Source of the DNA: Candidatus Kapaibacterium sp.
Lineage (GTDB): Bacteria > Bacteroidota > Ignavibacteria > Kapaibacteriales > UBA2268
DNA length: 64,000 nt
Assembly (NCBI GenBank): GCA_963664875.1
Contig: OY761611.1
Coordinates: 2,304,001 to 2,368,000, forward strand
Reading direction: 5' to 3'
Shown here: positions 1,210 to 63,130 of the stretch, one piece after another
Layout of the letters: each line of letters begins with the position of its first letter
Position numbering within the stretch: position 1 is the stretch's first letter
Program-made: the position numbers and the translations under genes
The notes under the pieces: generated by a model
Told to the model about the DNA's origin: nothing
What the model saw: the letters and a program-made list of their open reading frames with translations, nothing else
Database searches by the model: none

Positions 1210-2448
1210 TTGATAACAAAGAATATAATAATAGTTGGTGGCGGTGCTGCAGGGCTCTTTGCAGGTTTACATCTAAAATCGTACAATGCTCTCGTATTGG
1301 AAAAAATGGACTCTCCCGGCAAAAAATTGCTTATGGCGGGTTCGGGACGGTGCAATATTTCGCACGAAGGAAATATTAAGGACTTCCTAATCCATTACGC
1401 AGACAAATCAAAATTTATCAAACCCGCATTGATGGAATATCCTAATACAAAACTACTCGAATTGCTCTATAGAAACGGGATGGAAACCGTGAGCTATGAA
1501 AACGGTAAAATATTTCCAAAATCTGAAAGTTCGAAAGATGTCCTCAATCTGTTTTTACAGCTTATTCGGAAAGCCGGTACTGAGGTATTATACAGGCAAA
1601 ACGTGATAGATATTCAACAAAATGATGACAAATTTATTGTAAGTACCAATCATGAGAAGTATGCAGCTCGGTACCTTATTCTTGCAGCTGGCGGCAGTTC
1701 ATATCCAAGCAGTGGCTCAGACGGACAAGCATATAATCTGGCAAAAAAGTTGGGACATAGTATAGTGCCAACGACTCCGGCTCTGACTGCGGTTATTACA
1801 GAAAACTATAAGTTCTCCGATATTTCAGGCGTGTCTTTGCGAGATATTGAAATAAGCCTCTTCCGTGACGGCAAAAAAATTAACAAACATCGAGGCGACC
1901 TTGCATTTACTCATAAAAGCCTTTCCGGACCGGGCATAATTGATTTTTCTCGATATATTAAATCAGGCGATACACTTACTATCAATTTTATCAATGTTAA
2001 TGAAGATAGATTTCGAGAAATTTTGATAGCTGACAGCAAGGTGCATGGAAAAAAAAACATCAGGAATTATCTGAAGCAGTACCCAATTCCTGAAAGTTTA
2101 CTAAATATGTTGCTGGCTTTAGAAAGAATTGATGCGAATAAGAATTTTTCTGAATTAAGCAAAGAACACAGAAATAAAATAGTCGAAATGCTTACTGCAT
2201 ATAAATTTACAGTTGCACGAAAAGTAGGTTTTAACCAGGCAATGGTAACTGCCGGTGGGGTCAGCACCACAGAGATAAACAGCAGGACTATGGAATCAAA
2301 AATAGTCCCCAATTTATATGTTGTAGGAGAGTTTTTGGATATAGACGGAGATACCGGAGGCTACAATCTGCAAGCAGCTTTTTCTACAGCTTATCTCGCA
2401 TGTAAATCTATAAAGCAAAAACTCAATATTGAGGATACTGTAAAATAA
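1210..2448 (+). CDS. HI0933/YhiN (BaiN-like) NAD(P)/FAD-dependent oxidoreductase
   Basis: Motifs IIVGGGAAGL, GKKLLMAGSGRCN, AMVTAGGV and GEFLDIDGDTGGYNLQAA. Likely TTG start at 1210. Confidence 0.9.
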   Translation: MITKNIIIVGGGAAGLFAGLHLKSYNALVLEKMDSPGKKLLMAGSGRCNISHEGNIKDFLIHYADKSKFIKPALMEYPNTKLLELLYRNGMETVSYENGKIFPKSESSKDVLNLFLQLIRKAGTEVLYRQNVIDIQQNDDKFIVSTNHEKYAARYLILAAGGSSYPSSGSDGQAYNLAKKLGHSIVPTTPALTAVITENYKFSDISGVSLRDIEISLFRDGKKINKHRGDLAFTHKSLSGPGIIDFSRYIKSGDTLTINFINVNEDRFREILIADSKVHGKKNIRNYLKQYPIPESLLNMLLALERIDANKNFSELSKEHRNKIVEMLTAYKFTVARKVGFNQAMVTAGGVSTTEINSRTMESKIVPNLYVVGEFLDIDGDTGGYNLQAAFSTAYLACKSIKQKLNIEDTVK

Positions 2449-2506
2449 ATTTACCTGTTTGTTGTTATTTTAATTGAATTGCATAATTGAGGAGGGCGGA
2501 AGCAAT

Positions 2507-3559
2507 ATGTCAAAGATTGAAAGCATTTACGGATACGACGACCTAAACGAAAGAGAAAGACAGATACTAAACAGGATAATTCAGCTTTATATACTAAATG
2601 CCACACCGGTAGGTTCTCGTGTGCTATCCAAATACCTTAGCGATAACATTAAATTAAGTCCTGCAACTTTACGTAATGTAATGGCTGACTTGGAAGAATT
2701 GGAATACATTAGCCATCCACATACTTCTGCAGGGCGCATACCCACTGACAAAGGATATAGATTTTATGTAGATTCTTTGAAAAAGCTCGAAGATCTATCG
2801 GAACACGAAATAAATACAGTTGCCTCGCATTTGGGTAGCACATCTTCAGAAGAAGTACTCAAGCAAGCTACCGGCCTGCTTGGTCAGCTTTCACGTTATT
2901 TGGGAATTGTACGTTTGCCTCAGGTTCCTGACCTAATTGTTCAAAAAATTGAATTGATTTCTATATCAAGCAAAAGAGTGCTGGTAGTTATAGCACTTAA
3001 TTCCAATATAGTACGAACAGTAACTTTGGAGGCAGATCTTGATATCGAAGCGAGATACCTAAGCGACGTTTCAACGTATATCAATGAAAAGATTGCCGGC
3101 AATCCTCTCAAGTATCTCAGAGACAATTTCCACGACATGATTAGTGACTTAGAGAATAAAGACACTCCTCTTATTAGGCTTTTTTCTGACTCATTGGACA
3201 AAATATTCAGTCCAAACTCTCAAGAAGATTTGATAATAGCAGGCACTCAAAATCTATTAGCATATCCTGAATTTGATCAGCCGGATAAAGTTCGTGGTGT
3301 AATCGAATTGGTCGAAAACAGAGAAATGATAATTCACCTACTCGAAAAAAATGAGGATAGAGAGGGTATTAGAGTACTTATCGGCGGTGAACTGGATTCA
3401 GGCTTGCTAAAAGATTACAGCCTTATTTCGACTTCTTACCGTATTGGCACTGCAGTAGGCACAATCGGTCTGATAGGCCCCAAAAGAATGAACTATCCGA
3501 AAATGATTACTATAGTGGAAGCAGTTTCTAAACAGCTTGAACGCATGAGCGATGTTTGA
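2507..3559 (+). CDS. hrcA: Heat-inducible transcription repressor HrcA
   Basis: PVGSRVL...SPATLRNVMADLEELEYISHPHTSAGRIPTDKGYRFYVD and C-terminal GTIGLIGPKRMNY. GGAGG lies upstream of the ATG at 2507. Confidence 0.95.
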   Translation: MSKIESIYGYDDLNERERQILNRIIQLYILNATPVGSRVLSKYLSDNIKLSPATLRNVMADLEELEYISHPHTSAGRIPTDKGYRFYVDSLKKLEDLSEHEINTVASHLGSTSSEEVLKQATGLLGQLSRYLGIVRLPQVPDLIVQKIELISISSKRVLVVIALNSNIVRTVTLEADLDIEARYLSDVSTYINEKIAGNPLKYLRDNFHDMISDLENKDTPLIRLFSDSLDKIFSPNSQEDLIIAGTQNLLAYPEFDQPDKVRGVIELVENREMIIHLLEKNEDREGIRVLIGGELDSGLLKDYSLISTSYRIGTAVGTIGLIGPKRMNYPKMITIVEAVSKQLERMSDV

Positions 3560-3741
3560 TATTAAAGGAAATGATTACGACGTAAAATAAGTATATGTAC
3601 TTAAGTATTTTTTGGCTTGATTATTGTTTTGTAAATTGCAATTCACTATAAGAAGCTGTATATCTTTTTGATTAAGGCGCATTGCCTCAGACAGCAGCAA
3701 AACAACAGTAATTGCATTAACAAAATCGGGCAAGATAAATA

Positions 3742-5448
3742 ATGGCTGAGCTATACGAAAAGATTTATGTTTTTTGCTTTTCTTCCGAGCTGAAACATCA
3801 AATAGAGAGAGTACTTTCGAAGTACTACATTATTGATTTTATTCAAAATAAAGATGAGCTCTTTTCGCTAATTGAAACCTCAGGAAAACCGGTAGCTGTT
3901 TTTGCTGAAGTCAGCAATCACTACACTACAGGCTTCGAAATACTCGCGGAATTGAAGGAAGAATGCCCCGATGCTTCAAGAATACTACTTACTGATATTA
4001 GAGAACCCAAAGAGTTAATTCCAATACTAAAAGACACTGCGGCACTGATGTACGTCAAGTATCCATGTACAAATTTTGATTTATTCCAAACTGCTGTTTT
4101 AGGAGCTAAGTTTGCAGATCTCAAAAGAAAGTTTAATGCTAATCAATTAGTTAGTTCAGGTGACTCAAAGCAACTACTTGTTCAAATGGAGCAGATAGAC
4201 AAGGAAAATAAAGAACTACGTTACTCAGCTGAAAACCTTGGCAAAGCAAATACTATTCTTCAGAATGAGATCGCCGATTTGTCTAATCTTGTTGCGGGCA
4301 AAGCTAATATCATTGATAATCTCGGAAAAGAAAATAAAGATCTCAATCTTCAAATCGAAGCAATAACAAAAGAACAGGCATCTGAAAGAAATTTATATTC
4401 TGACGCTGATACCAAAATTGAATCTTTAGGAATTACAATATCTCAATTAGAATCCGAAATAGAAGAAACGAGAAGAAGGGTTTTTGATTATGATTCTTTG
4501 CTCGCTCTTTCGACTTATGTTCGAGAGTTCAATAAATTCAGCTTTATAGACCATACTTACTATGTGTCGTCGCTTGCAAAAGATGTAGGTGCGAAGATGA
4601 ATCTGGATAACGACCGGTTGCATAATCTTTTGACTGCTGCCTTGTTACATAATATTTCAATTTTAAATATGCCAAACTATTTCCAGGTTGCTAATCCTAA
4701 TGACATGGCTCCGGAACGCAGAAAACACTATTTCTACTATTTTGGAAGAGCTCTGCGAATTTTAAAAAAAGCCAAACCTTTGGCAAACGCAGTTGAAATA
4801 ATCGAACAAATTTGGGAGCATGCAGATGGAACAGGATTTCCACACGGCACTCCCGGAATGCGTATAAGCGACGAAGCTCAAATACTTGCAATTGCAAATC
4901 TATACGTTAAAAATGTATATAGTCTCAACGAAAAAGAATTTACAAATTTGATGAAGGAAAAGAAAGTACAGCAGTCTCCCGAAACTACAGTAAAAAAACA
5001 TAAAGCTGCTATTGATCTAATCCGACGTAACTCTTACTGGTTTAGAAAATCTGTTTCTGATGTGTTTCTTTCATTAGCCGATAAAATGGAAAGCAATGCT
5101 TTTACAGCACCATCAAGAGCTTTGATTATTGATATACAAGAGCTCATATCAGCAGACAATCAAAAAACCAAAAACGAATTTATTGAAATTGATTTCTACG
5201 ATAAGGATCTTATGCTTGATTGGGAAACAGCAGAGGGTCATAAAGTCTATGTCAAATCAAAGGAAATCAATATACCTGATTTGAAACACGGCATGATTTT
5301 GTCTAAAGATCTTACTTCTGACGGAGGCGCTATAGTTGTCAAAGCAAATACAGAGATAAAGGAAGCAGAATTTAAAAATATATGGCAAATGATTAGTAAA
5401 GATATGCTGCACGGTACTACTGAAATCTACATTCCTTTTGAACACTAA
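3742..5448 (+). CDS. Receiver-like domain + coiled coil + degenerate HD-GYP domain protein
   Basis: N-terminal REC-like fold (GFEILAELKEECPDASRILLT...YVKYP), central coiled coil, then AALLHNI and WEHADGTGFPHG...ISDEAQILAIAN. Confidence 0.75.
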   Translation: MAELYEKIYVFCFSSELKHQIERVLSKYYIIDFIQNKDELFSLIETSGKPVAVFAEVSNHYTTGFEILAELKEECPDASRILLTDIREPKELIPILKDTAALMYVKYPCTNFDLFQTAVLGAKFADLKRKFNANQLVSSGDSKQLLVQMEQIDKENKELRYSAENLGKANTILQNEIADLSNLVAGKANIIDNLGKENKDLNLQIEAITKEQASERNLYSDADTKIESLGITISQLESEIEETRRRVFDYDSLLALSTYVREFNKFSFIDHTYYVSSLAKDVGAKMNLDNDRLHNLLTAALLHNISILNMPNYFQVANPNDMAPERRKHYFYYFGRALRILKKAKPLANAVEIIEQIWEHADGTGFPHGTPGMRISDEAQILAIANLYVKNVYSLNEKEFTNLMKEKKVQQSPETTVKKHKAAIDLIRRNSYWFRKSVSDVFLSLADKMESNAFTAPSRALIIDIQELISADNQKTKNEFIEIDFYDKDLMLDWETAEGHKVYVKSKEINIPDLKHGMILSKDLTSDGGAIVVKANTEIKEAEFKNIWQMISKDMLHGTTEIYIPFEH

Positions 5449-5495
5449 TACAAGACTTTGCTTTTTAGTAAGCATAGATTATAAGGAATTGAAAC

Positions 5496-5529
5496 AAAAA
5501 ACCGGATATAAGATTGCATATATCCGGCT
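5496..5529. terminator. Hairpin between convergent genes (probable bidirectional terminator)
   Basis: CCGGATATA...TATATCCGG inverted repeat with an adjacent A-run. Confidence 0.65.
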
Positions 5530-5553
5530 CATGTCTAAAATAAGAGTACAAAT

Positions 5554-6225
5554 TTATTTAAGTACAGATTCAATAGATTTTACAATTACTGCAAGATTGC
5601 TATTGCTTTTTTTGCAGCTACTTTCTGATTTAACTTCGATTCTGCCGGCATCTCTTCCGACTTTACTTACTTTTTCCTGCAATTTAGATTTTCTTTCCTC
5701 GAGCAAAGCTGCTTTTGAAGATCTTTCTTTTTCGGCGATATCGTTAAGAGAAACTACAAAATAGAAATTGACGTTTCTATTAAACTTCATAATTGAAATG
5801 ATTTCTTCCAATTGTGCATCAAAGCCTGAATTGATATTTGAAGTTCCTTTATCAAAAATATCTGCTTCTAAGAAGAGCAAATCTTTTGTTAGCTTTTGTA
5901 CAGTAAAGTTTTTCTCAAACTCTTTATACCCAGTAGCAGATTCTGTTTTGAAAGTTTCTACTTTACGAATAATTTCTTTATGCAAGAATGTAACTTCGTA
6001 TTCGGTATCAGATTCGAAAAGCTGTGTAAAAGCACCTGTAACAGGATCTGATTTGATTTTTATAGTCTGACCTGCTTTAGTTTCAAATTTCATGGTAACT
6101 CCAACCGGAGAACCTGTATAAGAATCAGTAACTTTGCCTTTTATTAATATCTGTGCTGCAAACGATGTAGCAGCAAAAGCCATACAGAGAGTCATCATAA
6201 AGATAAGAGATGCAATTTTTTTCAT
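5554..6225 (-). CDS. Secreted protein, carboxypeptidase-regulatory-like domain + degenerate OmpA-like C-terminus
   Basis: Signal peptide; IKGKVTDSYTG motif; IFDKGTSNI...LEEIISIMKFN resembles the start of an OmpA C domain. Confidence 0.55.
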   Translation of the reverse strand: MKKIASLIFMMTLCMAFAATSFAAQILIKGKVTDSYTGSPVGVTMKFETKAGQTIKIKSDPVTGAFTQLFESDTEYEVTFLHKEIIRKVETFKTESATGYKEFEKNFTVQKLTKDLLFLEADIFDKGTSNINSGFDAQLEEIISIMKFNRNVNFYFVVSLNDIAEKERSSKAALLEERKSKLQEKVSKVGRDAGRIEVKSESSCKKSNSNLAVIVKSIESVLK

Positions 6226-6330: not shown

Positions 6331-7098
6331 TTAAATCTGAAAGCCTTCCAAAAGCTGTTTTATCAATGCAGGATTGTTAGACGCTATTGCTTTGACTTTG
6401 AACTCCGAGACTTGCTTAAAATCCTCTTTGCTATCTACATCATATACGCCTAAAATGATATTATGTTTGATTGCATCTGCTTCTATTTCGCGAGTAAGCT
6501 CTTCGAGTGAACAAATAAATATCTCAGCTCCGATTTGACTACAAATTTGCGACGGGAGAAAATTTTCCCATGGGATTTTTATAGCAGCAGTATAAATGCT
6601 CGGATTATATTTCTTAATTTCTGCAAGGACTTTATAATCAAACGAACCAAAAGTAGAGAAATCTAAATAATTGCAATCAGCTACAGTGTCGATAATTTTG
6701 TGAATTTTTTCACTTGACAGAGACTGCTCGCCGGCTTTGATTTCAATATTCAGATAAGCTTTCCCGTGGATAAGATCAATTACTTCACTAAGTAATGGCA
6801 CTTTTTCGCCACTAAATTCACCGCCAAACCACTTACCGGCATCGAGCTTCAATATATCTTTGTAGCTCATGTCCTTTACGGCAGAGTCGCCATCTGTAGT
6901 CCTTCCCTGATTTAGGTCATGCATGGCTATCGGCATATTGTCTGCAGTTACCTGCACATCTACCTCAATCATGTCAACTCCTGCATCTAATGCATGCTGA
7001 AATGAAGAAAGAGTATTTTCAGGAGCCAAATCGCTTGCACCTCTGTGCCCTATAACTATAACGTCCTTATTAAGCGCAAATTCGTTTATTGGCAGCAT
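6331..7098 (-). CDS. Glycerophosphodiester phosphodiesterase
   Basis: IGHRGASDLAPENTLSSF, MIEVDVQVTAD, HD and LNIEIK motifs. Confidence 0.93.
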   Translation of the reverse strand: MLPINEFALNKDVIVIGHRGASDLAPENTLSSFQHALDAGVDMIEVDVQVTADNMPIAMHDLNQGRTTDGDSAVKDMSYKDILKLDAGKWFGGEFSGEKVPLLSEVIDLIHGKAYLNIEIKAGEQSLSSEKIHKIIDTVADCNYLDFSTFGSFDYKVLAEIKKYNPSIYTAAIKIPWENFLPSQICSQIGAEIFICSLEELTREIEADAIKHNIILGVYDVDSKEDFKQVSEFKVKAIASNNPALIKQLLEGFQI

Positions 7099-7237
7099 AT
7101 CTTAACCGTCACTTTATAATATTTGATATAAATTAAGAACAAAATAGATTAAATCCTATTGTATTTACGTCAAAAATATAAAGGGGTTTAGTTTAAAGTT
7201 TGCTACTATTTATCATATTATTATCGAAGGAGCTAAT

Positions 7238-7675
7238 ATGCCGGCACTAACACAAATCAGTGAAATTATGAGTCGCTCCTTTTTCTCTGTACAGCTTGAT
7301 GATACTCTGAAAAAAGCTGACGACATAATCAAAGAAGAAAAAGTAAGATTTCTGCCAGTTCTCGATGGCAAAAAGTTTTTAGGATTGATAACAGAACGAA
7401 AGCTCTTGGAGTATGCCTGCAGAAAGATATACGACCCTGAGTCTGACGCAGGCTTTAACTCAATCGGAGACTATGAGCATATTATGGAAGAGGTTAGCCA
7501 TGTCATTTACAAAGAAGATACTATCTTTAAGGCAGTAGAACTTTTCAGCAAATACAAAATAGATTCATTGCCCGTGGTAGATTGGGACTACAATCTCGAA
7601 GGAATGCTGACAACTCACGACATACTTCTCTATTTTCGCAAAAAGCTCGAAGAAGAGCGTTATATCAAAATATAG
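7238..7675 (+). CDS. CBS-domain pair protein
   Basis: Two CBS motifs (LPVLDGKKFLGLITERKL; LPVVDWDYNLEGMLTTHDIL). GGAG RBS. Confidence 0.9.
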   Translation: MPALTQISEIMSRSFFSVQLDDTLKKADDIIKEEKVRFLPVLDGKKFLGLITERKLLEYACRKIYDPESDAGFNSIGDYEHIMEEVSHVIYKEDTIFKAVELFSKYKIDSLPVVDWDYNLEGMLTTHDILLYFRKKLEEERYIKI

Positions 7676-7690
7676 AAAATAATAAACCTC

Positions 7691-7736
7691 AAACCCGGCA
7701 TCTTATATTTTACAAAAAAGTGTCGGGTCTTTTTTT
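7691..7736 (+). terminator. Rho-independent terminator
   Basis: ACCCGGCA...TGTCGGGT stem followed by a T-run. Confidence 0.65.
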
Positions 7737-8057
7737 GGAGGCAAATATTTCCATCTAAAGGACACTTCAAGTCTTTATCCACCTTATATTTGAATCAGTT
7801 TCGAAACAACTAAACACTTTCGCAGCTTGCACGTTTTAGTAGGTAGAAGACTTTACTTTCGATTCATTCAGCTCTATAAATTTTTGTACCTCGACCTGCC
7901 TCGGCTTAGAAGCAGTCACAGACTACCGCTTCTACGTTTTCTTAGAGAATTACTTAAATCCTAACCTACTTAGCATTGTTGATGAAGGGAAATGGAAAAT
8001 TGTTGGAAATGAACTACATGCCGGTGTAAGGTATAGGTTGTAGGAGAGTTTGCTTTA

Positions 8058-8699
8058 CTAAAACAAAACTTTTATTTGCATACCATATTTTTGGTAGATA
8101 TTTTCTTTGGTATTGATAACTGCGGCAAAAGTTTCGAATACAAGATTCTTCTTTCCGACTCCAAATATAATATCCGCGCCTACTCCCATTTTTGACGCAT
8201 TTACATCACTTCCCTCGCCATCTGTTACTTCAGTATAAGAAGGAGCACTGATGTATGCTATACGGCTTATGAAGGACATAGAACAATGTAAGTAATTAGG
8301 ATTACTGAATCTGATGGAAAATTCTGCCCCACCGCTGTAAATGTATGTATGCTTGTCCTTGGAATTTAGAAAATCAACTCCGGCGACATAGTTTAGATTT
8401 ATACCATCAACTATGTACCAAGGATATAAGCTCATACTAATGTTCATTCCTCCGCCAATTTTATCTGGCTCAATGGATGATTCCGCAAAACACATACCCA
8501 AAGATAAACTATATTTACTTGTAAGAGGGCGCGTCACCAGCCATGAACAATCGAATCCGTGATATAAAACATAGGCATCGTTATCATAGTAAATATAGGT
8601 ATCTTTGTCAAAGTCATAATAATAATCTTGATTATCATCTATTTGAGCAGATAATATCATTGGTAAAAAGCATAAAAACATGGTGATATATCTTATCAT
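8058..8699 (-). CDS. Hypothetical outer-membrane beta-barrel-like protein
   Basis: Signal peptide, alternating beta-strand pattern, C-terminal Phe. Confidence 0.55.
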   Translation of the reverse strand: MIRYITMFLCFLPMILSAQIDDNQDYYYDFDKDTYIYYDNDAYVLYHGFDCSWLVTRPLTSKYSLSLGMCFAESSIEPDKIGGGMNISMSLYPWYIVDGINLNYVAGVDFLNSKDKHTYIYSGGAEFSIRFSNPNYLHCSMSFISRIAYISAPSYTEVTDGEGSDVNASKMGVGADIIFGVGKKNLVFETFAAVINTKENIYQKYGMQIKVLF

Positions 8700-8709
8700 A
8701 TTGAAATCT

Positions 8710-9279
8710 CTATATTAAAAAGCTAAACAGAATGAAATGGCGCATCCCTGAAAATTTTTGATTCCTACGAAAGATATTCCCATAATATTCAGCTCTGTAG
8801 GAAATGGAATATTGAGAGTAAAATAGGCTTAAAGAGAAGGGCATAGATGGATAAATATAACTCATGTTTGTTATTTCAACTCCCGGTATTTTCCCATAAT
8901 GTGCATACTTAGAAAAGCTTAGTCCTAATGAAGGTTCTATCCCTATTTTCTTTGCTATCCAAAAGATTATACTTGCTGATTGAGAGATTGAAAATCTATG
9001 CTGAAAAATAAAATTGTAAGAATCATGTTCAATTCTTAGTTGTGATGCTGTATAATTGATTCCCATATATCCCCAAACATTCTGTCTCCCTCTATCGCGG
9101 AAATTTAATTGATGGGAAACAGTTGGATGGGTTTCTGTAAGCTCAATAAATATGCCTCGAGAATTGTAATTAGAATTTTGGGAATTTACCCCTATAGACA
9201 GATATCCAGCCGCTGATTCACTTTTATTTGCAAAACATAGTATGGATAAAATTAGTTATATGATAAATCTATACTTCAC
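8710..9279 (-). pseudogene. Outer-membrane-like protein with an in-frame TAA in its signal peptide
   Basis: GTG at 9279 after AAGGA reads MKYRFII*LILSILCFANKSES... and continues in frame into ORF 8710..9066. The stop is at 9256-9258. Confidence 0.6.
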
Positions 9280-52949: not shown

Positions 52950-52998
52950 AATTAGGATTTTGAGTGAAAAACAAAATACACATATGGAAATTTACAAC

Positions 52999-54855
52999 AT
53001 GAAACAACTTATACTATTACTTTTAATCGTGCCTGCGCTGCTTAGTGCCGAACTCTATGAAGGATCTGACTCATTAAAGCCAAAAAAGGAATATACATAT
53101 AAAGCAAAAGGTGGTTTAGATATAGACCCTAATCTGCTTAATGACGAAGTTCCTGATGACCCTCGTATTCGTTTTGCTACTTATTTTGGTGGAAGTGCGG
53201 CTGATGCAGTGCAGGATTTCAAGATTGATTCTAAGGGTTATTTGTATGCTATTGGTAATACCTTTAGTAATGACTTTCCAATGGTTGGAAATTCCTTTGA
53301 CTCTGAAAAAACTGAAGAAGATTATATTGATGCTTTTATTGTCAAATTTGACACATTAGGTTTTCCTGTTTGGAGTACATACTTTGGTGGAAGAGGAGAA
53401 GACAGAGGTACTAGATTAGAAATAGATTCAGAAGATAACATAATTATTTCAGGAGCTACTAATTCCCCAAATTTCCCATTAAAAGGGGAATTTGACCAAG
53501 ACAGTATAAAAGGCGAAGCAGATATGTATGTCGCTAAGTTTGATCAGGACGGCAATCTTCTATGGTCAAGGTTATTTGGCGGAACATATTTAGATCAGGC
53601 TTTTGGTCTTGCCATAGATGCTGATGATAATATATATCTTGCCGGTAATACTATGAGTACTGATATAGTCAGAAGTGACTGGACTTATCAGCCTGAGTTC
53701 AGCTTGTTTATTGGTAAATGGCGAGACTTCTCTGATGGAGTATTTGCCAAATTTAGTCCGGAAGGTAAACATATATGGTCGAGCTACTTGGGTGCGCAAC
53801 GTGTCGAACATTTAGAAGACATTGATGTTTATGGGGATGAGATAGCTATAGTTGGACGTTTAAGTGCTCCTATTACAAAGACTCATGAAAATATGTATAT
53901 AATAGGAACTGAAGATGCTATTCAAAAATTCCCATGTGATACTATGCTGTACGAACATTACACACTTTACGATCCATTTATTGCCAAATTTACAACTGAC
54001 AACTGTAAACTTAAGTATTTTACTTACTACTGTTCGGAAGCCAGGCGTGCAAATTTAAGTGATAATTATTATTTTTTCTCAGATTATGATGCAGACGGAA
54101 ATTTTATTTTAATTATTGACACTGACGACAATTCTATGCAAGTCAAAGGTTCTCCGTTTCATAATTATAATGAAATTGGAGGGCATTTTGGCAGGATGAT
54201 TCTGTCTTTAAATTTAGAAAATAAAGTTAATTGGGATTATGATATGATGGGAGGCTTAGGCTTTTTTGATAATTCATATGTTCTGGATAATAAAGTTTTG
54301 TGGGGAGAAGTCAATGCTGAAAAAAACATATTTCCTGAAGATAGCAATCATATCATTAATCGAGATCACGGAACTACTCGAACATCATTATTGATGCGAT
54401 ATGATTTAGAAAATTATAAACAATGGTACTCTTACCACCCTCACTTAATCGCAGACCCAAATCTTCTAGTTAAAAACAATGATGTTTATATTGTTTCTAA
54501 AGCACATTCAGCACACTTACTAAAAAATGCTTATTCTGAAGAATTCCATGAGTATGGTTTATATCTAATTAATTTTGATTTGAGAGAGAACTTTGGGTAT
54601 TCGGCAATAGATACAGGAAGAAATGATTTATCAAACATATCTGTCTATCCATCAATTGCATCTCAATCCATAACTATATCTTCTGAAGATTCCATTAGAC
54701 AACTACAAATCTATGATTTACTCGGTAAACAATTATATTCAAAAGAAATACAAATTCCCTTAAACGAGTTAGAAATTAACATAGAGAACTATGCAGACGG
54801 GATGTATTTCATTCTTGTAAACAATAATTACAGTCTTAAATTTATTAAGGAGTAA
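52999..54855 (+). CDS. SBBP-repeat T9SS cargo protein, paralog 2
   Basis: Tandem duplicate of 50873..52735. Termini are near-identical and the middle has diverged. Confidence 0.9.
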   Translation: MKQLILLLLIVPALLSAELYEGSDSLKPKKEYTYKAKGGLDIDPNLLNDEVPDDPRIRFATYFGGSAADAVQDFKIDSKGYLYAIGNTFSNDFPMVGNSFDSEKTEEDYIDAFIVKFDTLGFPVWSTYFGGRGEDRGTRLEIDSEDNIIISGATNSPNFPLKGEFDQDSIKGEADMYVAKFDQDGNLLWSRLFGGTYLDQAFGLAIDADDNIYLAGNTMSTDIVRSDWTYQPEFSLFIGKWRDFSDGVFAKFSPEGKHIWSSYLGAQRVEHLEDIDVYGDEIAIVGRLSAPITKTHENMYIIGTEDAIQKFPCDTMLYEHYTLYDPFIAKFTTDNCKLKYFTYYCSEARRANLSDNYYFFSDYDADGNFILIIDTDDNSMQVKGSPFHNYNEIGGHFGRMILSLNLENKVNWDYDMMGGLGFFDNSYVLDNKVLWGEVNAEKNIFPEDSNHIINRDHGTTRTSLLMRYDLENYKQWYSYHPHLIADPNLLVKNNDVYIVSKAHSAHLLKNAYSEEFHEYGLYLINFDLRENFGYSAIDTGRNDLSNISVYPSIASQSITISSEDSIRQLQIYDLLGKQLYSKEIQIPLNELEINIENYADGMYFILVNNNYSLKFIKE

Positions 54856-55068: not shown

Positions 55069-55100
55069 GGAGAGGGTTTTGGCTCAAAATATTAGAGAAA

Positions 55101-55225
55101 GAGCCTGAAAGGCTCAAAGCAAATAGCCCGGGGCAGCTAAGGTCACTGAGCGAGCGCAGCAAGTCGAAGTGCGGGAAAAGAAACGCCCACACCCTCGTTT
55201 TCCATAACCGAGCGGAGCGAGGTGA
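55101..55225. repeat. Composite REP cluster (GAGCCTGAAAGGCTC family with an embedded A-type repeat)
   Basis: GAGCCTGAAAGGCTCAAA (also at 50564), TAGCCCGGGGCAGC, then AAGGTCACTGAGCGAGCGCAGCAAGTCGAAGTG, the reverse complement of the array A repeat. Confidence 0.75.
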
Positions 55226-55319
55226 AGTATTTTCTTCTTTCTAAGTACAAGAATCAAAAAAATGTTTACATCTCTTAAATATTTTACTCTATCACTTAAA
55301 ATAAGGACTTATAGCGAGG

Positions 55320-57096: not shown

Positions 57097-57165
57097 CACT
57101 TCAGTTTACTGAGTTTGCTGAGTGAGATTAACAAGTTCATCGAGCGAGCAAAGGGAGTCGAGATG
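57097..57165. repeat. Isolated degenerate A/B repeat pair of the GIY-YIG array family
   Basis: CACTTCAGTTTACTGAGTTTGCTGAGTGAG ... GTTCATCGAGCGAGCAAAGGGAGTCGAGATG. Confidence 0.7.
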
Positions 57166-58276: not shown

Positions 58277-58875
58277 TTATAGAAACCATACGAATTTTTA
58301 CAATCAAATAATGCAATATCATGGTTTATGTGATCTAATAGAAAAGGGAATTTCATGTCCTTACAAAAATCTTCATATAAAAGATCAAAATATCCATATT
58401 CAATAGGCAATATTGTATTCGTATTTATATCTACTAAACAATTTTTTTTATTTTTAGTATCAGATTCTTTTATTGTCACCACATAAACATCATCTTTCCA
58501 GTATAAATAAGCATCATAGCCAATATTATATATCTTCTTTTCTTTTGGTCTCAATACATACTGATAATCTGCTGAGTAATCGGTGCCATTGAATCTTATA
58601 GTATCAAAGCCTCTATTAAATACTAATCTACCGGTATTATCAATAATAAACTGCTTCCCTTTATAAGTAACAATACCAAATTCTTTATCAAACTGAGTAG
58701 CTTTATCAAATCTATAATCTACAATAAGCTTTCCATACTGATTTATATATCCCCAGCTTCCGTTATTCTCCACAGGCAATAGAATATTTTCAGGGATAGA
58801 ATAATGCAGCGGTTTATCGCAACTAGTAACTAAAAGTACAAAAATTATAATAATTAGAGAGCGCACTAAACGCAT
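58192..58875 (-). CDS. WG-repeat lipoprotein, probably 3'-truncated
   Basis: Lipobox LVTSC; SWGYINQYGKLIVDYRFDKATQF, IIDNTGRLV and LVDINTNTILPIEY are WG_beta_rep-like units. The tail looks out of frame. Confidence 0.7.
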   Translation of the reverse strand: MRLVRSLIIIIFVLLVTSCDKPLHYSIPENILLPVENNGSWGYINQYGKLIVDYRFDKATQFDKEFGIVTYKGKQFIIDNTGRLVFNRGFDTIRFNGTDYSADYQYVLRPKEKKIYNIGYDAYLYWKDDVYVVTIKESDTKNKKNCLVDINTNTILPIEYGYFDLLYEDFCKDMKFPFLLDHINHDIALFDCKNSYGFYKLQIKILLQQQVLLVFARTVLDLKIMTS

Positions 58876-58939
58876 AAAAACCTCACTTTCGAAACACTCC
58901 ATATAAAATAGCAGATATTTTAAAAGAAAACAAAAGCTT

Positions 58940-58955
58940 TGTTTCATGTGAAACA
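58940..58955. other. parS-like site 1
   Basis: TGTTTCATGTGAAACA vs consensus TGTTNCACGTGAAACA. Confidence 0.85.
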
Positions 58956-59265
58956 AAAAAAGTACTTAGTGGTTTGCACTTCGACTCACTGAGATTGGGA
59001 TAATGTGCTACAATAATATTTAAGGTCATCGAGCGAGTACAATGAGTCGAGATGCAATACAGTCACTTTTACACTTCGACTCACTGCGTTCGCTCAGTGA
59101 CCTTAGTAAATAAGTACAATTATAAAATAAAAAGGACATCGAGCGACCAGAGGGAGTCGAGATGCAATACACCTTCTTCTTTCACATCGATTCATTTTAG
59201 TCACTCAGTGACCTTAAAGAATATAAGATATAAAATAAATAGAATTTAGATTTAAAACAGATAAG

Positions 59266-59281
59266 TGTTTCATGTGGAACA
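59266..59281. other. parS-like site 2
   Basis: TGTTTCATGTGGAACA. Confidence 0.85.
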
Positions 59282-59601
59282 ATCTTTGTGAAGAGGTTGT
59301 GGCTTACACTTCGACTCACTATGTTCGCTCAGTGACCTTAAGAATAGACCAGATAATTCAAAAAGGTCATCGAGCGATTGGAGGGAGTCGAGATGTATGA
59401 CTTTTATTTTTACACTTCGACTCACTACCTTCGCTCAGTGAGCTTCGGGTATTTTTCTGTATTATAATATAGGTCATCGAGCGACCAGAGGGAGTCGAGA
59501 TGAAGAACTATCCTTTCTACACTTCGACTCACTGCGTTCGCTCAGTGAGCTTGAACAAATAAGGTATATAATATATGATAATAAGATTCAAAATAGATAA
59601 A

Positions 59602-59617
59602 TGTATCATGTGAAACA
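59602..59617. other. parS-like site 3
   Basis: TGTATCATGTGAAACA (one additional mismatch). Confidence 0.7.
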
Positions 59618-59788
59618 GTCTTTGTATAAGAGCTTTTAGCTTACACTTCGACTCACTGCGTTCGCTCAGTGACCTATGTGTAAATATGTACGAATAATAC
59701 ATAAGGTCATCGAGCGACCAGAGGGAGTCGTGATGCAAAATTCATATCAATATCAAAATCGAACAATATCAGATATCTAAACACGTAC

Positions 59789-59804
59789 TGTTTCATGTGG
59801 AACA
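59789..59804. other. parS-like site 4
   Basis: TGTTTCATGTGGAACA, 6 nt upstream of the first ATG of the GIY-YIG ORF. Confidence 0.85.
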
Positions 59805-59810
59805 AAATAG

Positions 59811-60113
59811 ATGCTTATGGCAAAAGCTTATACATATATCCTACTTTGTTGTGATGGTACTTATTACACAGGCAGTACTAAAGATTTGCATTTAAGAATG
59901 GTAGAACATTATTCCGGCGAAGGAGCAAATTATACATCGAAACGCCTCCCTGTTAAACTTATCTATGTAGAAGAATTCGATAGAATAGATCACGCCTTTG
60001 AAAGAGAAAAGCAAATACAAGGCTGGTCACACCGCAAAAAGAAAGCCCTCATAGAACGCAACTATGATAACTTAAAGAAATACTCCAAATCTTATCAGAT
60101 GTTAGAGAAGTAG
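59811..60113 (+). CDS. Small GIY-YIG nuclease (UPF0213/YhbQ-like)
   Basis: YTYILLCCDGTYYTGST.DL..R...H..GEGANYT.KRLPVKLIYVE...AFEREKQIQGWS..KK.ALI. The catalytic Tyr/Arg/His/Glu pattern is intact. Confidence 0.93.
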   Translation: MLMAKAYTYILLCCDGTYYTGSTKDLHLRMVEHYSGEGANYTSKRLPVKLIYVEEFDRIDHAFEREKQIQGWSHRKKKALIERNYDNLKKYSKSYQMLEK

Positions 60114-60120
60114 GTAGTGA

Positions 60121-60535
60121 CACTTCGACTCGCTGCGTTCGCTCAGTGACCTTAAAAAAGATATGCCGTGCTAATTCAAAAAGGTCATCGAGCGAGTGAA
60201 ACGAGTCGAGATGCAGAACAATTCCAATATGCACTTCGACTCACTGCGTTCGCTCAGTGAGCTTGAGATATTGTGTTGCAATAGTATTGAAGGTCATCGA
60301 GCGACCAGAGGGAGTCGAGATGTTGGACTGTAACATTTACACTTCGACTCACTGCGTTCACTCAGTGACATTGAGATATTTCTCTATTTTAGTATAAAGG
60401 GTCATCGAGCGAGTGAAACGAGTCGAGATGCAGAACAATTCCATTAAACACTTCGACTCACTACGTTCGCTCAGTGAGCTTATCTATAGAAAAATAATTA
60501 GAAAGGTCATCGAGCGAGTGTAACGAGTCGAGATG
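60121..60535. repeat. Alternating inverted palindromic repeat array, right arm (4 A/B pairs)
   Basis: A at 60121, 60232, 60340, 60449. B at about 60181, 60290, 60398, 60503. Period 108-111 bp. Confidence 0.95.
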
Positions 60536-60561
60536 CAAAATACAAATATCAAAACTCGTAT

Positions 60562-60577
60562 TGTTCCATGTGGAACA
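60562..60577. other. parS-like site 5
   Basis: TGTTCCATGTGGAACA. Confidence 0.85.
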
Positions 60578-60583
60578 ATAGTA

Positions 60584-60937
60584 CTAGTAGCTCTCCCCTT
60601 TGTTTTCCAGTTCTATTCTTTTTATTTCGATTGCTTTAAGTTTTTTAGCCACTGCGGTTCCGAGTTGTATATTTCTTGCATTGCAGTAGTTCATAAGGGC
60701 TATAAATACATCGGCAGCTTCATCTTCGAACCTACTGTGTTCTATAGTTTTGCCTTTCCATTGTTTCTTTTCTATGTTAGCAAGTTCTCCTGCTTCTCCG
60801 TTTAGTTCAAGGCAGAAAAATTCGGGGCTTTTTGGTGTGAAATGTTTGTTTTGATACTTATCAAATTCTTCTTGTATTTGATTTATAGGCTCTTCGCAGT
60901 AATGAAGGAGTATAGGCATATCTATGTATTCAGACAT
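60584..60937 (-). CDS. MazG-like nucleotide pyrophosphohydrolase
   Basis: LELNGEAGELANIEKK...FEDEAADVFIALMNYCNARNIQL, an ExxE...ExxD all-alpha NTP-PPase motif. Confidence 0.85.
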   Translation of the reverse strand: MSEYIDMPILLHYCEEPINQIQEEFDKYQNKHFTPKSPEFFCLELNGEAGELANIEKKQWKGKTIEHSRFEDEAADVFIALMNYCNARNIQLGTAVAKKLKAIEIKRIELENKGESY

Positions 60938-60940
60938 TTT

Positions 60941-63130
60941 TTATTCCTCAAAATCTTTAAAATAAGTTCTAATTTTTCCTATTAGTAAATCTACAGCGTT
61001 GTTTTTTGCAGTCTTTTTACTATTCCCGGTCTGGGTAACTGATGCGGTAAAATCTTTGATTATTATTTCTGCTGTGCATTCGAATTCAGGTTCAGGAACT
61101 GATGAGATTTCTTTGAAAGTATAGATAGGCATGCGAGTGTCGAAATATTGGCAGATTAAGGATATTGCATTTGATTGCAAACCTTCTTCAATAAGTTTCC
61201 TGATTGCGTCGAGTCTATTATCTACTTTGGATACTGCGAAGTCTTGTAAATGGAGAAAAGCCATTTTAGCTGCCTTCTGTTTTGCAGTTTTCTTATTTTT
61301 CCCATTACCGTAAAATTCTAATACTTCTTCTTTATACTTTAATTCAAGTTTACATTTAAAACTTGTATTATTTTCCGGAAGAGGTTCTATGTAATAGCCA
61401 AGAAGTTTAATATCATTATTCTGCATGGTTAGTGTATTTATTAGACTTACCGAGTCTTCTATTGTAGATTCTTGAATATTTGAATGCTCAATGGTTTGAT
61501 CCTTATGTTGTGTATTCTCTTCTGTCTCTATATAATTTGTAGTGGGTTTTTCTGCTTCAATACAATTATTCTTAATAAAATCTACAAGTACTGCAGCACG
61601 CGAACTATTTATAGCTTCTTTTTTATTAGTGTTTGAAATTTTCAAAGTTGTAGTGTAGTATTTGTTGTCTGAAGTTTTGATATAAGTTCTGTTGTGAAAT
61701 ATATCTCCTTTTTTCTCAGTTTCCTCTTCTATTTCTGAAATCAAATTTTGTGACTGCATTAGATAAAGTATCTGTGAGCCTATACTTGGAATCTTAAGTA
61801 TATTATCGAGTATTGCATCTCTTATATCCGGTTCTGATTCTAACCAGTCAGATTCAAAAATAATATAATAAATTTCGATTGCAGTTATAGACATTGAATT
61901 TAGTCTATTTAGTATCTCTGTTTTTATTATTGGTTTTATCGCAGCTGAAGATCTCAGGTTTTTCAGGATGTTTTTAAAATCTCGTACTTCCATTTCAGAA
62001 AGCGCGTTGCTATTGATATTGATGAGACTTGCACTAATTTCTTGGTTGAAAATCTTTTTGAAATGTTCAGTCTTTTTTTCTCTTTCCTTTTCAAAAAAGT
62101 CATTTACAAAATTGCAATAATCTTCAATTTGTTCTATTGTAAATGGTATTGGTGAACCTGTTATGTGACTTCTGATAATAGTATGATTCAATAAATCAGG
62201 GAATCGTCTAATTGGCGAAGTAACATGTGCATAAGCCGGTAGGTTCAGAGCATAATGCCCTTTCAGTTTCGTTTCGTAAATAGCTCTGTTTTGCCATATA
62301 GACATTCTACTTATAAAAGTTGATAAGGTTGAAGGGTTGTTTATGGCGGTAAGCAGTTGATTGTGTACTTCTTCCCTGTCCGGAATATTTGATTTTACAG
62401 TATGATTTCTATATACAAACGGAATATCTTTCTCAGCAAAGTATCTTGCTGTTTCGGAATTAGTAAGTACCATCATTTCTTGAATAATCATATAGGCAAT
62501 TGCTACTTTTTTATTAGCAAATATCTTTACATTTCCTTCTTCATCTGTATATAAGCCCTTGTCTGGGTCAAAATATGAGAGTGCTCCCATTTGCTTTCTC
62601 TTATTGCTCAGTTTAATAGCAAGTTCGTAAGCATTTAAAAGCATTTTTTTGATTTCGGAATGATTTGTTTGATCAGTTAGAATATCCACTACATTTTCAT
62701 AAGTAAGTTTTGCGAGGCTCTTAATCTTCCTTTCTGAAATACTAAAGTCAACTACATCCAAAGAATCATCTAATTCGATATGGAAATTTATTGCAGGACG
62801 TTTAAATCCTTCTTTTAGACTCAATAATCGGAATGATAAAAAATTTGGCAGCATAGGAAGCGAAGATTCTTTTAAGTAAATTGTAGTTACAAGTTGAGAA
62901 GCATTTTCAAAGACAGGCGAATCAGCTTCTATATAAGCAGATGTGTCTGCAATTGCGATATCACAGATATACATATTATCTCTTTTTTCTACCCAAATAG
63001 TATCATCCATATCCTTTGTTTCAGCAGAGTCTATACTCAGACCATTAACTGATTCTCTGGATTTGAGATTTATATCTTTATTTTTTAAATTTTCTGCGTA
63101 CTCTATACATCTACCGGTAAATCTTGACAT
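60941..63130 (-). CDS. RNase II/R (RNB) catalytic domain fused to 2-3 C-terminal dsRNA-binding domains
   Basis: SIDSAETKDMDDTI, IAIAD, TIYL...PMLP, IIQEMMVLTN, GHYAL...YAHVTSPIRRFPDLLNH. dsRBD-like ends NTNKKEAINSS, GNGKNKKTAKQKAAKMAF and GNSKKTAKNNAVDLL. Confidence 0.85.
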   Translation of the reverse strand: MSRFTGRCIEYAENLKNKDINLKSRESVNGLSIDSAETKDMDDTIWVEKRDNMYICDIAIADTSAYIEADSPVFENASQLVTTIYLKESSLPMLPNFLSFRLLSLKEGFKRPAINFHIELDDSLDVVDFSISERKIKSLAKLTYENVVDILTDQTNHSEIKKMLLNAYELAIKLSNKRKQMGALSYFDPDKGLYTDEEGNVKIFANKKVAIAYMIIQEMMVLTNSETARYFAEKDIPFVYRNHTVKSNIPDREEVHNQLLTAINNPSTLSTFISRMSIWQNRAIYETKLKGHYALNLPAYAHVTSPIRRFPDLLNHTIIRSHITGSPIPFTIEQIEDYCNFVNDFFEKEREKKTEHFKKIFNQEISASLININSNALSEMEVRDFKNILKNLRSSAAIKPIIKTEILNRLNSMSITAIEIYYIIFESDWLESEPDIRDAILDNILKIPSIGSQILYLMQSQNLISEIEEETEKKGDIFHNRTYIKTSDNKYYTTTLKISNTNKKEAINSSRAAVLVDFIKNNCIEAEKPTTNYIETEENTQHKDQTIEHSNIQESTIEDSVSLINTLTMQNNDIKLLGYYIEPLPENNTSFKCKLELKYKEEVLEFYGNGKNKKTAKQKAAKMAFLHLQDFAVSKVDNRLDAIRKLIEEGLQSNAISLICQYFDTRMPIYTFKEISSVPEPEFECTAEIIIKDFTASVTQTGNSKKTAKNNAVDLLIGKIRTYFKDFEE

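Follow-up and report, generated by a model that had tools for sequence, protein, structure and literature searches.

Small GIY-YIG nucleases flanked by hairpin repeats have a recently described precedent, the Ssn system of Neisseria, with which we compare a repeat-flanked GIY-YIG gene of Candidatus Kapaibacterium sp. (Bacteroidota; Ignavibacteria). The gene lies in a stretch of 64,000 nucleotides (nt), called the window below (contig OY761611.1 of GenBank assembly GCA_963664875.1, positions 2,304,001 to 2,368,000, forward strand); coordinates refer to it unless given as genome positions. In N. meningitidis, the GIY-YIG protein SsnA, of 94 amino acids (aa) and one domain, binds the NTS hairpin repeat as single-stranded DNA (ssDNA) and makes its cut upstream of the repeat; neither the reverse strand nor double-stranded DNA nor RNA is reported to serve as a substrate (Chenal et al., 2025, Nat Commun 16:2388; PMC11893778). 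According to the same report, SsnA lowers transformation by NTS-flanked DNA, its role being restriction of transforming ssDNA, and SRM repeats flank 71% of its homologs (approximately the CDD family cd10448). The Discussion of that paper compares Ssn with repetitive extragenic palindromic (REP) sequences, RAYT, bacterial interspersed mosaic elements (BIMEs), and IS200, and raises the hypothesis of a mobile element. Both the layout of a nuclease gene in a hairpin array and the REP/RAYT analogy were therefore already published in 2025 for Ssn; a literature search found no other paper on GIY-YIG nucleases with hairpin repeats. A second described group, the CGTC-tagged REPs, is reported to lack a dedicated transposase, and has an 8-9-bp stem, a 4-5-nt loop, a CGTC, TGTC, or CCTC tag, and a CCA tail (Di Nocera, De Gregorio and Rocco, 2013; PMC3733652).

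By analogy with Ssn, the product of the Kapaibacterium gene is likely to be an Ssn-like ssDNA endonuclease, with the two types of repeat around its gene (A and B) as its cognate hairpins, of a two-tier kind and putatively bound and cleaved by it. To our knowledge, the Ssn enzymes are the only site-specific nucleases that cut ssDNA exclusively, and each pair of enzyme and hairpin is a potential tool with a specificity of its own.

A nuclease gene within an array of inverted repeats

The host genome is a single contig of 3.83 Mb with 36% G+C. The locus takes up about 1.6 kb (58940-60577), with the nuclease gene (59811..60113, +; single-copy in this genome) inside an array of short repeats. Its 100-aa product, Ssn-like in having a single domain, matches Pfam GIY-YIG over residues 5-77 (E = 1.8e-16), with no second domain. 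There are 11 A-type repeats (consensus CACTTCGACTCACTGCGTTCGCTCAGTGACCTT) and nine B-type repeats (consensus AAGGTCATCGAGCGACCAGAGGGAGTCGAGATG), each 33 nt long; the two are one element in opposite orientations, A matching the reverse complement of B. Within the sub-arrays the start-to-start spacing of like copies is 105-111 nt, and the AT-rich linkers between elements come in two lengths, 17-20 and 23-28 nt. An earlier reading made from the letters alone (hereafter the sequence-only reading) had given the same repeat counts around the gene, a period of about 106-111 bp, and a first right-arm repeat 8 nt past the stop codon; these are confirmed. It missed a third motif, C, a 16-bp palindrome (TGTTYCATGTGRAACA) with five copies, all on +.

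From left to right the order is C-[A'BABA]-C-[ABABA]-C-[AB]-C-gene-[ABABABAB]-C: tandem units with a C at the head of each, and the gene in one unit only. For A and B copies the strand quoted is that of the tag, the unpaired 5′ AAGNT end described below; the A consensus itself reads on + in the array. The first unit is headed by C copy 1 (58940..58955, +; TGTTTCATGTGAAACA), followed by a truncated A consisting of the 5′ half only (58977..58992, -), a B with its AAGGT tag on + and the stem CATC/GATG (59022..59054, +), an A identical to the consensus with the stem CACT/AGTG (59072..59104, -), another B (59132..59164, +), and a degenerate A with 8 mismatches (59183..59215, -). C copy 2 (59266..59281, +; TGTTTCATGTGGAACA) heads the gene-less second unit, with A copies at 59307..59339, 59413..59445, and 59520..59552 (all -) alternating with B copies at 59363..59395 and 59470..59502 (both +). 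The third unit, also gene-less, consists of C copy 3 (59602..59617, +; TGTATCATGTGAAACA, 2 mismatches), an A (59644..59676, -), and a B (59703..59735, +) that is the closest repeat upstream of the nuclease gene, its tag facing away from it. C copy 4 (59789..59804, +) ends 6 nt before the nuclease ATG. Downstream of the gene, an A whose tag again faces away from it (60121..60153, -) starts at the eighth base past the stop codon. It is followed by a B with the apical variant GTGAAAC (60181..60213, +), an A (60232..60264, -), a B identical to the consensus (60290..60322, +), an A (60340..60372, -), a B (60398..60430, +), an A (60449..60481, -), and a B (60503..60535, +). C copy 5 (60562..60577, +; TGTTCCATGTGGAACA, a compensated variant) ends the locus, 6 nt from the stop codon of a convergent gene for a 117-aa protein. 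NCBIfam has no family above cut-off for either this protein or the nuclease.

Solo copies noted in the sequence-only reading are also present: an A-type at 55139..55171, with the A consensus on - and the tag strand +, and a B-type with 3 mismatches at 57133..57165 (+), whose degenerate, A-like partner lies some 35 nt further upstream, near 57100. A genome-wide count at 8 or fewer mismatches gave about 40 places. Because 19 of these fall in the 1.6-kb locus, a chance origin of the clustering is excluded. CRISPR-like and tandem-satellite readings were considered and rejected: the array consists of inverted copies of one element, with AT-rich spacers of 17-28 nt, in units headed by a palindrome. 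In contigs of three public DNA runs the unitigs break at the repeats, with no usable variation in array structure.

The C palindrome is tied to this locus. No copy was found elsewhere in the host genome at one mismatch or fewer; at zero mismatches there are 4-8 copies in each of five genomes of the genus, all within the nuclease locus, and one copy each in three of 36 further relatives. In all five species a C ends 5-10 nt upstream of the nuclease start codon. Probably C controls the nuclease gene, as either an operator or a 5′ hairpin, and was copied together with the units. After the C, the gene-less units match the start of the gene-bearing unit over 13-25 nt, which weakly suggests that they derive from gene-bearing units by internal deletion.

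Variants of C have T.G, T-A, or C-G at positions 5/12 and C-G or T.G at 6/11. Pairing, with G-T or G-U included, is kept only on the + strand, as would fit either a + transcript or + ssDNA. A function of REPs at the RNA level is on record (Di Nocera et al., 2013; PMC3733652), and the repeats might instead be RNA elements: terminators, mRNA stabilizers, or a processed non-coding array from C-headed units, with the link to the nuclease secondary. We regard this as distinctly improbable. The strict alternation of orientations would leave half of the elements usable per transcript; sigma-70-type promoter-like sites in 58800-60700 are at chance level (7, vs. 6.0 +/- 2.7 in shuffled sequences); Rfam at gathering thresholds finds two tRNAs in the whole window and nothing in the locus; and N. 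meningitidis SsnA is reported not to act on RNA (PMC11893778). Terminator-like sites in the same interval number 3, against 1.0 +/- 0.9 in shuffles, but all are portions of the repeats and hence uninformative.

Covariation of the stems and a two-tier hairpin

Covariation was examined in 146 copies from the host genome and four congeners, by mutual information over all column pairs. This singles out the pairs 7-34, 8-33, 9-32, and 10-31, and the pairs 18-24 and 19-23, defining two helices: an outer stem of 4 bp, and an apical stem of 2 bp closing a triloop. Bases are paired in 93.1% of cells, against 73.5% after shuffling, with none of 500 shuffles as high; changes on both sides of a pair occur in 220 cells, against 66 in shuffles. 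As a control, sliding the partner by 1-3 columns leaves 14-33% paired. Four outer-stem alleles are found among the 146 copies: CACT/AGTG, CATC/GATG, CGTT/AACG, and CCCT/AGGG. The compensatory CT..AG / TC..GA swap pointed out in the sequence-only reading is thus part of a wider pattern of four alleles in five genomes; its term "palindromic repeats" goes too far if taken to mean full palindromes, with just 4 + 2 base pairs supported.

Between the stems are the near-invariant sequences TCGACTC and TCGCTC (GAGTCGA and GAGCGA on the opposite strand), within an interior of 20 nt between the outer-stem arms. Alignment columns 35-39 hold a conserved unpaired end, ACCTT or ANCTT, which is 5′ AAGNT on the other strand. 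In each of the five genomes the forward and reverse copies differ in stem allele, and one congener cycles through four alleles. The identity of the stem is thus free, its pairing being kept.

In the mechanism we propose, the tag strand (5′ AAGNT; + for B, - for A), when single-stranded, would fold into a two-tier hairpin, in which a 4-bp outer stem of free sequence and a 2-bp apical stem with its triloop are separated by the invariant, purine-rich internal loops GAGCGA and GAGTCGA. By analogy with SsnA, the enzyme would bind tag, hairpin, and loops in a strand-specific manner and nick single-stranded DNA nearby. The combination of variable stems with two invariant internal loops provides a direct hypothesis on what the protein reads. 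Unequal crossing-over, both of A-B dimers and of the larger units headed by TGTTYCATGTGRAACA, may have enlarged the array at its present site. The biological role of the system would be to limit or shape recombination of ssDNA carrying the element.

Association of the repeats with a nuclease clade

In all four congeners an ortholog (75-82% identity) is embedded in the same A/B/C arrays. Counted per 20 kb, the five genus genomes have 24, 28, 31, 53, and 79 repeats, with C counts of 5, 4, 6, 5, and 9. The largest array seen is that of a congener (L031, G001:C5:32000-51999), with the 79 repeats and 9 C motifs; it holds an inserted element of two open reading frames (ORFs; 431 and 246 aa, ~6693-8730), IS21-like by appearance. 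More distant homologs lack A, B, and C, and bear their own repeats on the same plan, stem-TCGA...CTC-stem or its complement. Among 401 genomes sampled from the phylum, 61 have a homolog at E<=1e-15, and 27 loci were fetched. A related hairpin (stem-TCGA...CTC-stem) lies within 400 bp of the gene in 21 of the 27, and on both sides in 13; with kinship among the loci uncorrected these are counts, not a test, although the loci come from many genera and families. The six loci lacking a match include some with loops longer than the regular expression allowed, or with hairpins in a read-through tail of the ORF. Near the gene the hairpins number 4.75 per kb; at distances above 800 bp their density falls to 0.42, and the average across the host genome is 0.20 per kb.

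The sequence-only reading had held that a general lack of flanking repeats around close homologs, or an association of the repeats with a RAYT or IS200 transposase elsewhere in the genome, would speak against a functional link. The former is at odds with the figures just given; as to the latter, A, B, and C are all absent within 1.5 kb of each of the four Y1/HUH transposase genes (PF01797) in the host genome.

Orientation is also largely conserved. The closest upstream copy is B-oriented at 10 of 14 loci and the closest downstream copy A-oriented at 15 of 20. As at the host locus, the tags thus face away from the gene. In many of the relatives' loci the nuclease stop codon is inside a hairpin, and many genomes of the sample hold two or three homolog copies. 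One genome (G010) has a paralog from this clade with TCGACAAGCTC-type repeats and three Ssn-type paralogs with GTCATTCTGAGCGAAGCGAAGAATCC-type repeats. In other genomes (loci L012, L176, and L182) a homologous nuclease and hairpins are found in or between restriction-modification-like genes; at L012 (G010:C42:40383-43661), a hairpin tandem (translated as PELVDSV repeats), the GIY-YIG domain, and a protein of helicase/restriction-like type all lie in a single open frame of 999 codons.

Homing endonucleases of the GIY-YIG type are mobile genes, and the repeats occur without the nuclease gene too. A free-standing gene of the homing type might therefore have come to lie beside repeats that the host already had, without specificity for them. 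This seems improbable, given that the class of repeat tracks the clade of the protein, including two clades and two repeat classes in one genome, and that the rule of B upstream and A downstream recurs; the hairpins that contain a stop codon, and the presence of half of the host-genome copies at the gene, argue in the same direction.

The nuclease belongs to a clade of its own (34 members, support 0.88), apart from the Ssn-type (13 members, 0.86) and UPF0213-like (3 members, 0.98) proteins; the residues expected to be catalytic (Y9, Y19, G21, R29, and E66) are kept in all 34. Mean identity of the clade is 31% to Ssn-type and 26% to UPF0213-like proteins. The best matches by sequence among solved structures are the UPF0213 proteins BH0048 (PDB 1zg2, E = 1.6e-13) and EF2693 (PDB 1ywl, E = 1.4e-11). 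The UPF0213-like genes examined, two from Neisseria and one from Thiohalobacter, have no flanking hairpin repeats. In the two Neisseria genomes, which were found through a scan for the NTS pattern, these are the only small GIY-YIG genes found, and no NTS is nearby. The assignment to UPF0213 and Slx1 relatives in the sequence-only reading was accordingly imprecise. As a proxy for N. meningitidis SsnA we used an SRM-flanked Sphingopyxis homolog, which in one-genome searches matches the Kapaibacterium protein at E = 2e-9, with 35-36% identity at about 80% cover. Primers for cloning and mutagenesis of N. meningitidis SsnA (supplement to PMC11893778) encode QPAVY, NGTLYIGVT, and REKQLKKW, which are Ssn-type motifs as in the Sphingopyxis proxy.

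The published SRM pattern, HGTCWYN(0-2)YYVSBRHN(0-5)WNVSBRGN(0-2)RNCYNB, does match repeats beside Ssn-type genes (loci L161, L166, L170, and L015, from Sphingopyxis and one relative). Supplementary Data 4 of the same paper lists genomes such as Melioribacter, Ignavibacterium, and Flavobacterium with a cd10448 homolog and an SRM enrichment near 1 (PMC11893778). The present locus and its clade, found in 61 of the 401 genomes, suggest that the pattern misses a whole class of cognate hairpins.

Several observations weigh against assigning the protein and its repeats to an Ssn-like system. The SRM pattern has no match in the locus, five in the whole host genome, and none within 500 bp at any of the 27 clade loci. 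The mean identity to Ssn-type proteins is low and the clade separate, and the proxy match is weaker than the E<1e-10 used by Chenal et al., together with 75% cover, in blastp searches with N. meningitidis SsnA. Copies dispersed outside the locus number about 20, far below the hundreds in Neisseria, which weakens the case for a genome-wide role in restricting transformation. With just four outer and three main apical stem alleles, in copies that are related, the number of independent events behind the covariation is small. Finally, the folding of single elements as naked DNA is weak (-2.3 to -5.1 kcal/mol, z from -0.06 to -1.6), and dimers of an A with an adjacent B are more stable (-17.2 and -16.8 kcal/mol, z of -2.1 and -2.4).

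Taken with an inversion, described below, whose ends are at arrays, the dimer energies could point to another functional structure: a long imperfect hairpin or cruciform of A with B, serving for instance as a site of recombination or replication pausing. The comparative data favor the fold within the element, because it is precisely at the outer-stem positions that an A and its neighboring B fail to match, in each genome, against 93% pairing within elements. Solo copies, moreover, have no partner with which to pair. A cruciform function is therefore highly improbable in our view, and it is weak, as are the readings at the RNA level and by chance association discussed above.

Insertions of the element and comparison with known systems

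In the four congeners the locus adjoins a UmuC-like gene, a FAD-oxidoreductase gene, and queD/queF. The segment from UmuC to the nuclease is inverted between two species pairs, and the ends of the inversion are at the arrays. The host locus has different neighbors, but serS is still within a few kb. Judged by these shared neighbors, the inversion ends, and the IS21-like insertion at an array, the locus is inherited vertically and rearranges at its arrays.

Two further features of the window may be recorded here. Next to the locus, 60941-63130 (-) encodes a protein with an RNB domain (RNase II/R-like; Pfam RNB, 3.3e-66) and two C-terminal double-stranded-RNA-binding motifs (dsrm, 4.3e-10), an unusual fusion. 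Two near-identical genes stand in tandem at 52960-54855 and immediately upstream (1858-3735 and 3984-5855 counted from window offset 49001). Their products, about 625 aa long, have a C-terminal tail of secretion-sorting-like type, and one and the same short antisense ORF precedes either gene.

About 19 copies are outside the window, many of them in mosaics with other small palindromes. Solo A copies occur in this way with GCCCTTACAGGGC, GCCCCGGGC, and GAGCCTTTCAGGCTC at 55100-55260 of the window and, for example, at genome positions 200355, 2597769, 2663421, and 3223926, in a BIME-like patchwork of several families. Two groups of copies are inside paralogous cassettes of orphan toxin type, which we take to be YD/RHS-like from motifs in the translation; Pfam matches neither a 2851-aa protein of the same presumed kind nor two orphan cassettes. 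Searches with the flanks found both filled and empty sites. At the conserved IDPLWEKY junction, where the element fits exactly, there are three filled sites (genome positions 3442609, 3444096, and 3445393), in which 34 nt replace 5 nt, and four empty ones, one of them within the full-length gene of 2851 codons (genome 3511273-3519828). At the likewise conserved RFGFNGME junction, again with the element exactly in place, there are three filled sites (2081656, 2088882, and 3800179), in which 35 nt replace 6 nt, and five empty ones. The net gain in both sets is 29 nt, which shifts the frame; the empty sites keep it. No target-site duplication and no conserved target was seen at the filled sites. 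At three further places (3436976, 3438694, and 3440193) one base of an A-type copy is replaced by a B-like element nested in it, with the stem TATC/GATG and the apical sequence AT-AAA-AT; these copies are downstream of three tandem paralogous ORFs. The solo insertions probably represent about three events, later copied. Comparison of paralogous filled and empty sites shows that the hairpin element can enter DNA de novo, including genes. Such sites in toxin cassettes are rare direct evidence for insertion of mini-hairpins into genes, and bear on how REP-like repeats spread without a transposase. Neisseria NTS repeats likewise cluster near variable surface and cassette genes (PMC11893778).

These insertions raise the possibility that gene and hairpins together are an active selfish mobile element, an analogue of a REPtron without an HUH enzyme, in which the nuclease would excise, copy, or insert units, with the solo copies as its non-autonomous derivatives. 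The Ssn-like reading partly coincides with this one; the difference is in what the cleavage serves. Besides the solo copies in coding sequence, it would account for the B-like elements nested in A at three places, the varied contexts of homologs (some in frame within restriction-enzyme-like ORFs, as at L012, L176, and L182), the two or three copies in many genomes, and the resemblance of the outward tags to terminal inverted repeats, and a hypothesis of this kind was raised in the Discussion of Chenal et al. (PMC11893778). Each filled set may, however, reflect one insertion followed by duplication of the cassette, about three events in all; there is neither a target-site duplication nor a conserved target, the locus is largely syntenic in the genus, the host genome has one gene copy and few solos, and the viral contigs scanned hold no close relative of the protein. 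We know of no GIY-YIG enzyme that carries out strand transfer. We hold a mobile element to be possible, as a minority reading. Much the same analogy had been drawn in the sequence-only reading: that the gene and the hairpins form one unit is borne out by all four congeners and 21 of 27 loci, but the idea had been published (PMC11893778), with restriction of transforming ssDNA as the role, and spread of the repeats by the enzyme is hypothetical.

It is conceivable, if unlikely, that the element propagates itself in a more specific manner: the enzyme would nick both strands at head-to-head spacers, where the tags are 23-28 nt apart, and the breaks or single strands set free in this way would give rise to longer arrays, to inversions, and to 34-nt hairpin units inserted in other genes, among them the recombination junctions of the YD/RHS-like toxin cassettes. 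Were this the case, it would be the first hairpin-repeat "transposase" outside the HUH enzymes.

The Ssn-like reading is the one we prefer, and the locus resembles Ssn in several respects. Each system has a GIY-YIG protein with one domain and about 100 aa (the family limit is 150 aa or less), in which the catalytic Tyr, Tyr, Arg, and Glu are kept; short oriented hairpins with an unpaired 5′ tag stand on either side of its gene, further copies being dispersed or clustered; and protein and flanking repeat vary together. They differ in the hairpin, which here is two-tiered (4-bp and 2-bp stems, with invariant internal loops of 6 and 7 nt) as opposed to the 8-9-bp stem and 4-5-nt loop of Ssn; in the tag, AAGNT rather than CGTC/TGTC; in copy number, about 40 per genome with half of them at the gene, against hundreds dispersed; and in the extra locus-specific C palindrome and alternating stem alleles found here.

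With REP/BIME-RAYT systems (REPtrons) the locus shares short hairpins in alternating orientation, two linker lengths, and clustering at the gene for an enzyme acting on hairpins. It differs in that the enzyme is of the GIY-YIG rather than the HUH/Y1 type, the four Y1_Tnp genes of the host being without these repeats, and in the tag, which is AAGNT rather than GTAG. The CGTC REPs are similar in being tagged, oriented hairpins, often in head-to-head dimers, with large clusters in some genomes (PMC3733652); the tag, stem, loop, and CCA tail of that family are all absent from the present element. UPF0213 proteins, finally, are of the same size and have the same H-x-SG-x-GA-x-YT segment, but the genes examined are not accompanied by hairpin repeats, and their mean identity to the clade is the lower of the two given above. 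In comparison with all of these, the two-tier hairpin described here is apparently of an undescribed type.

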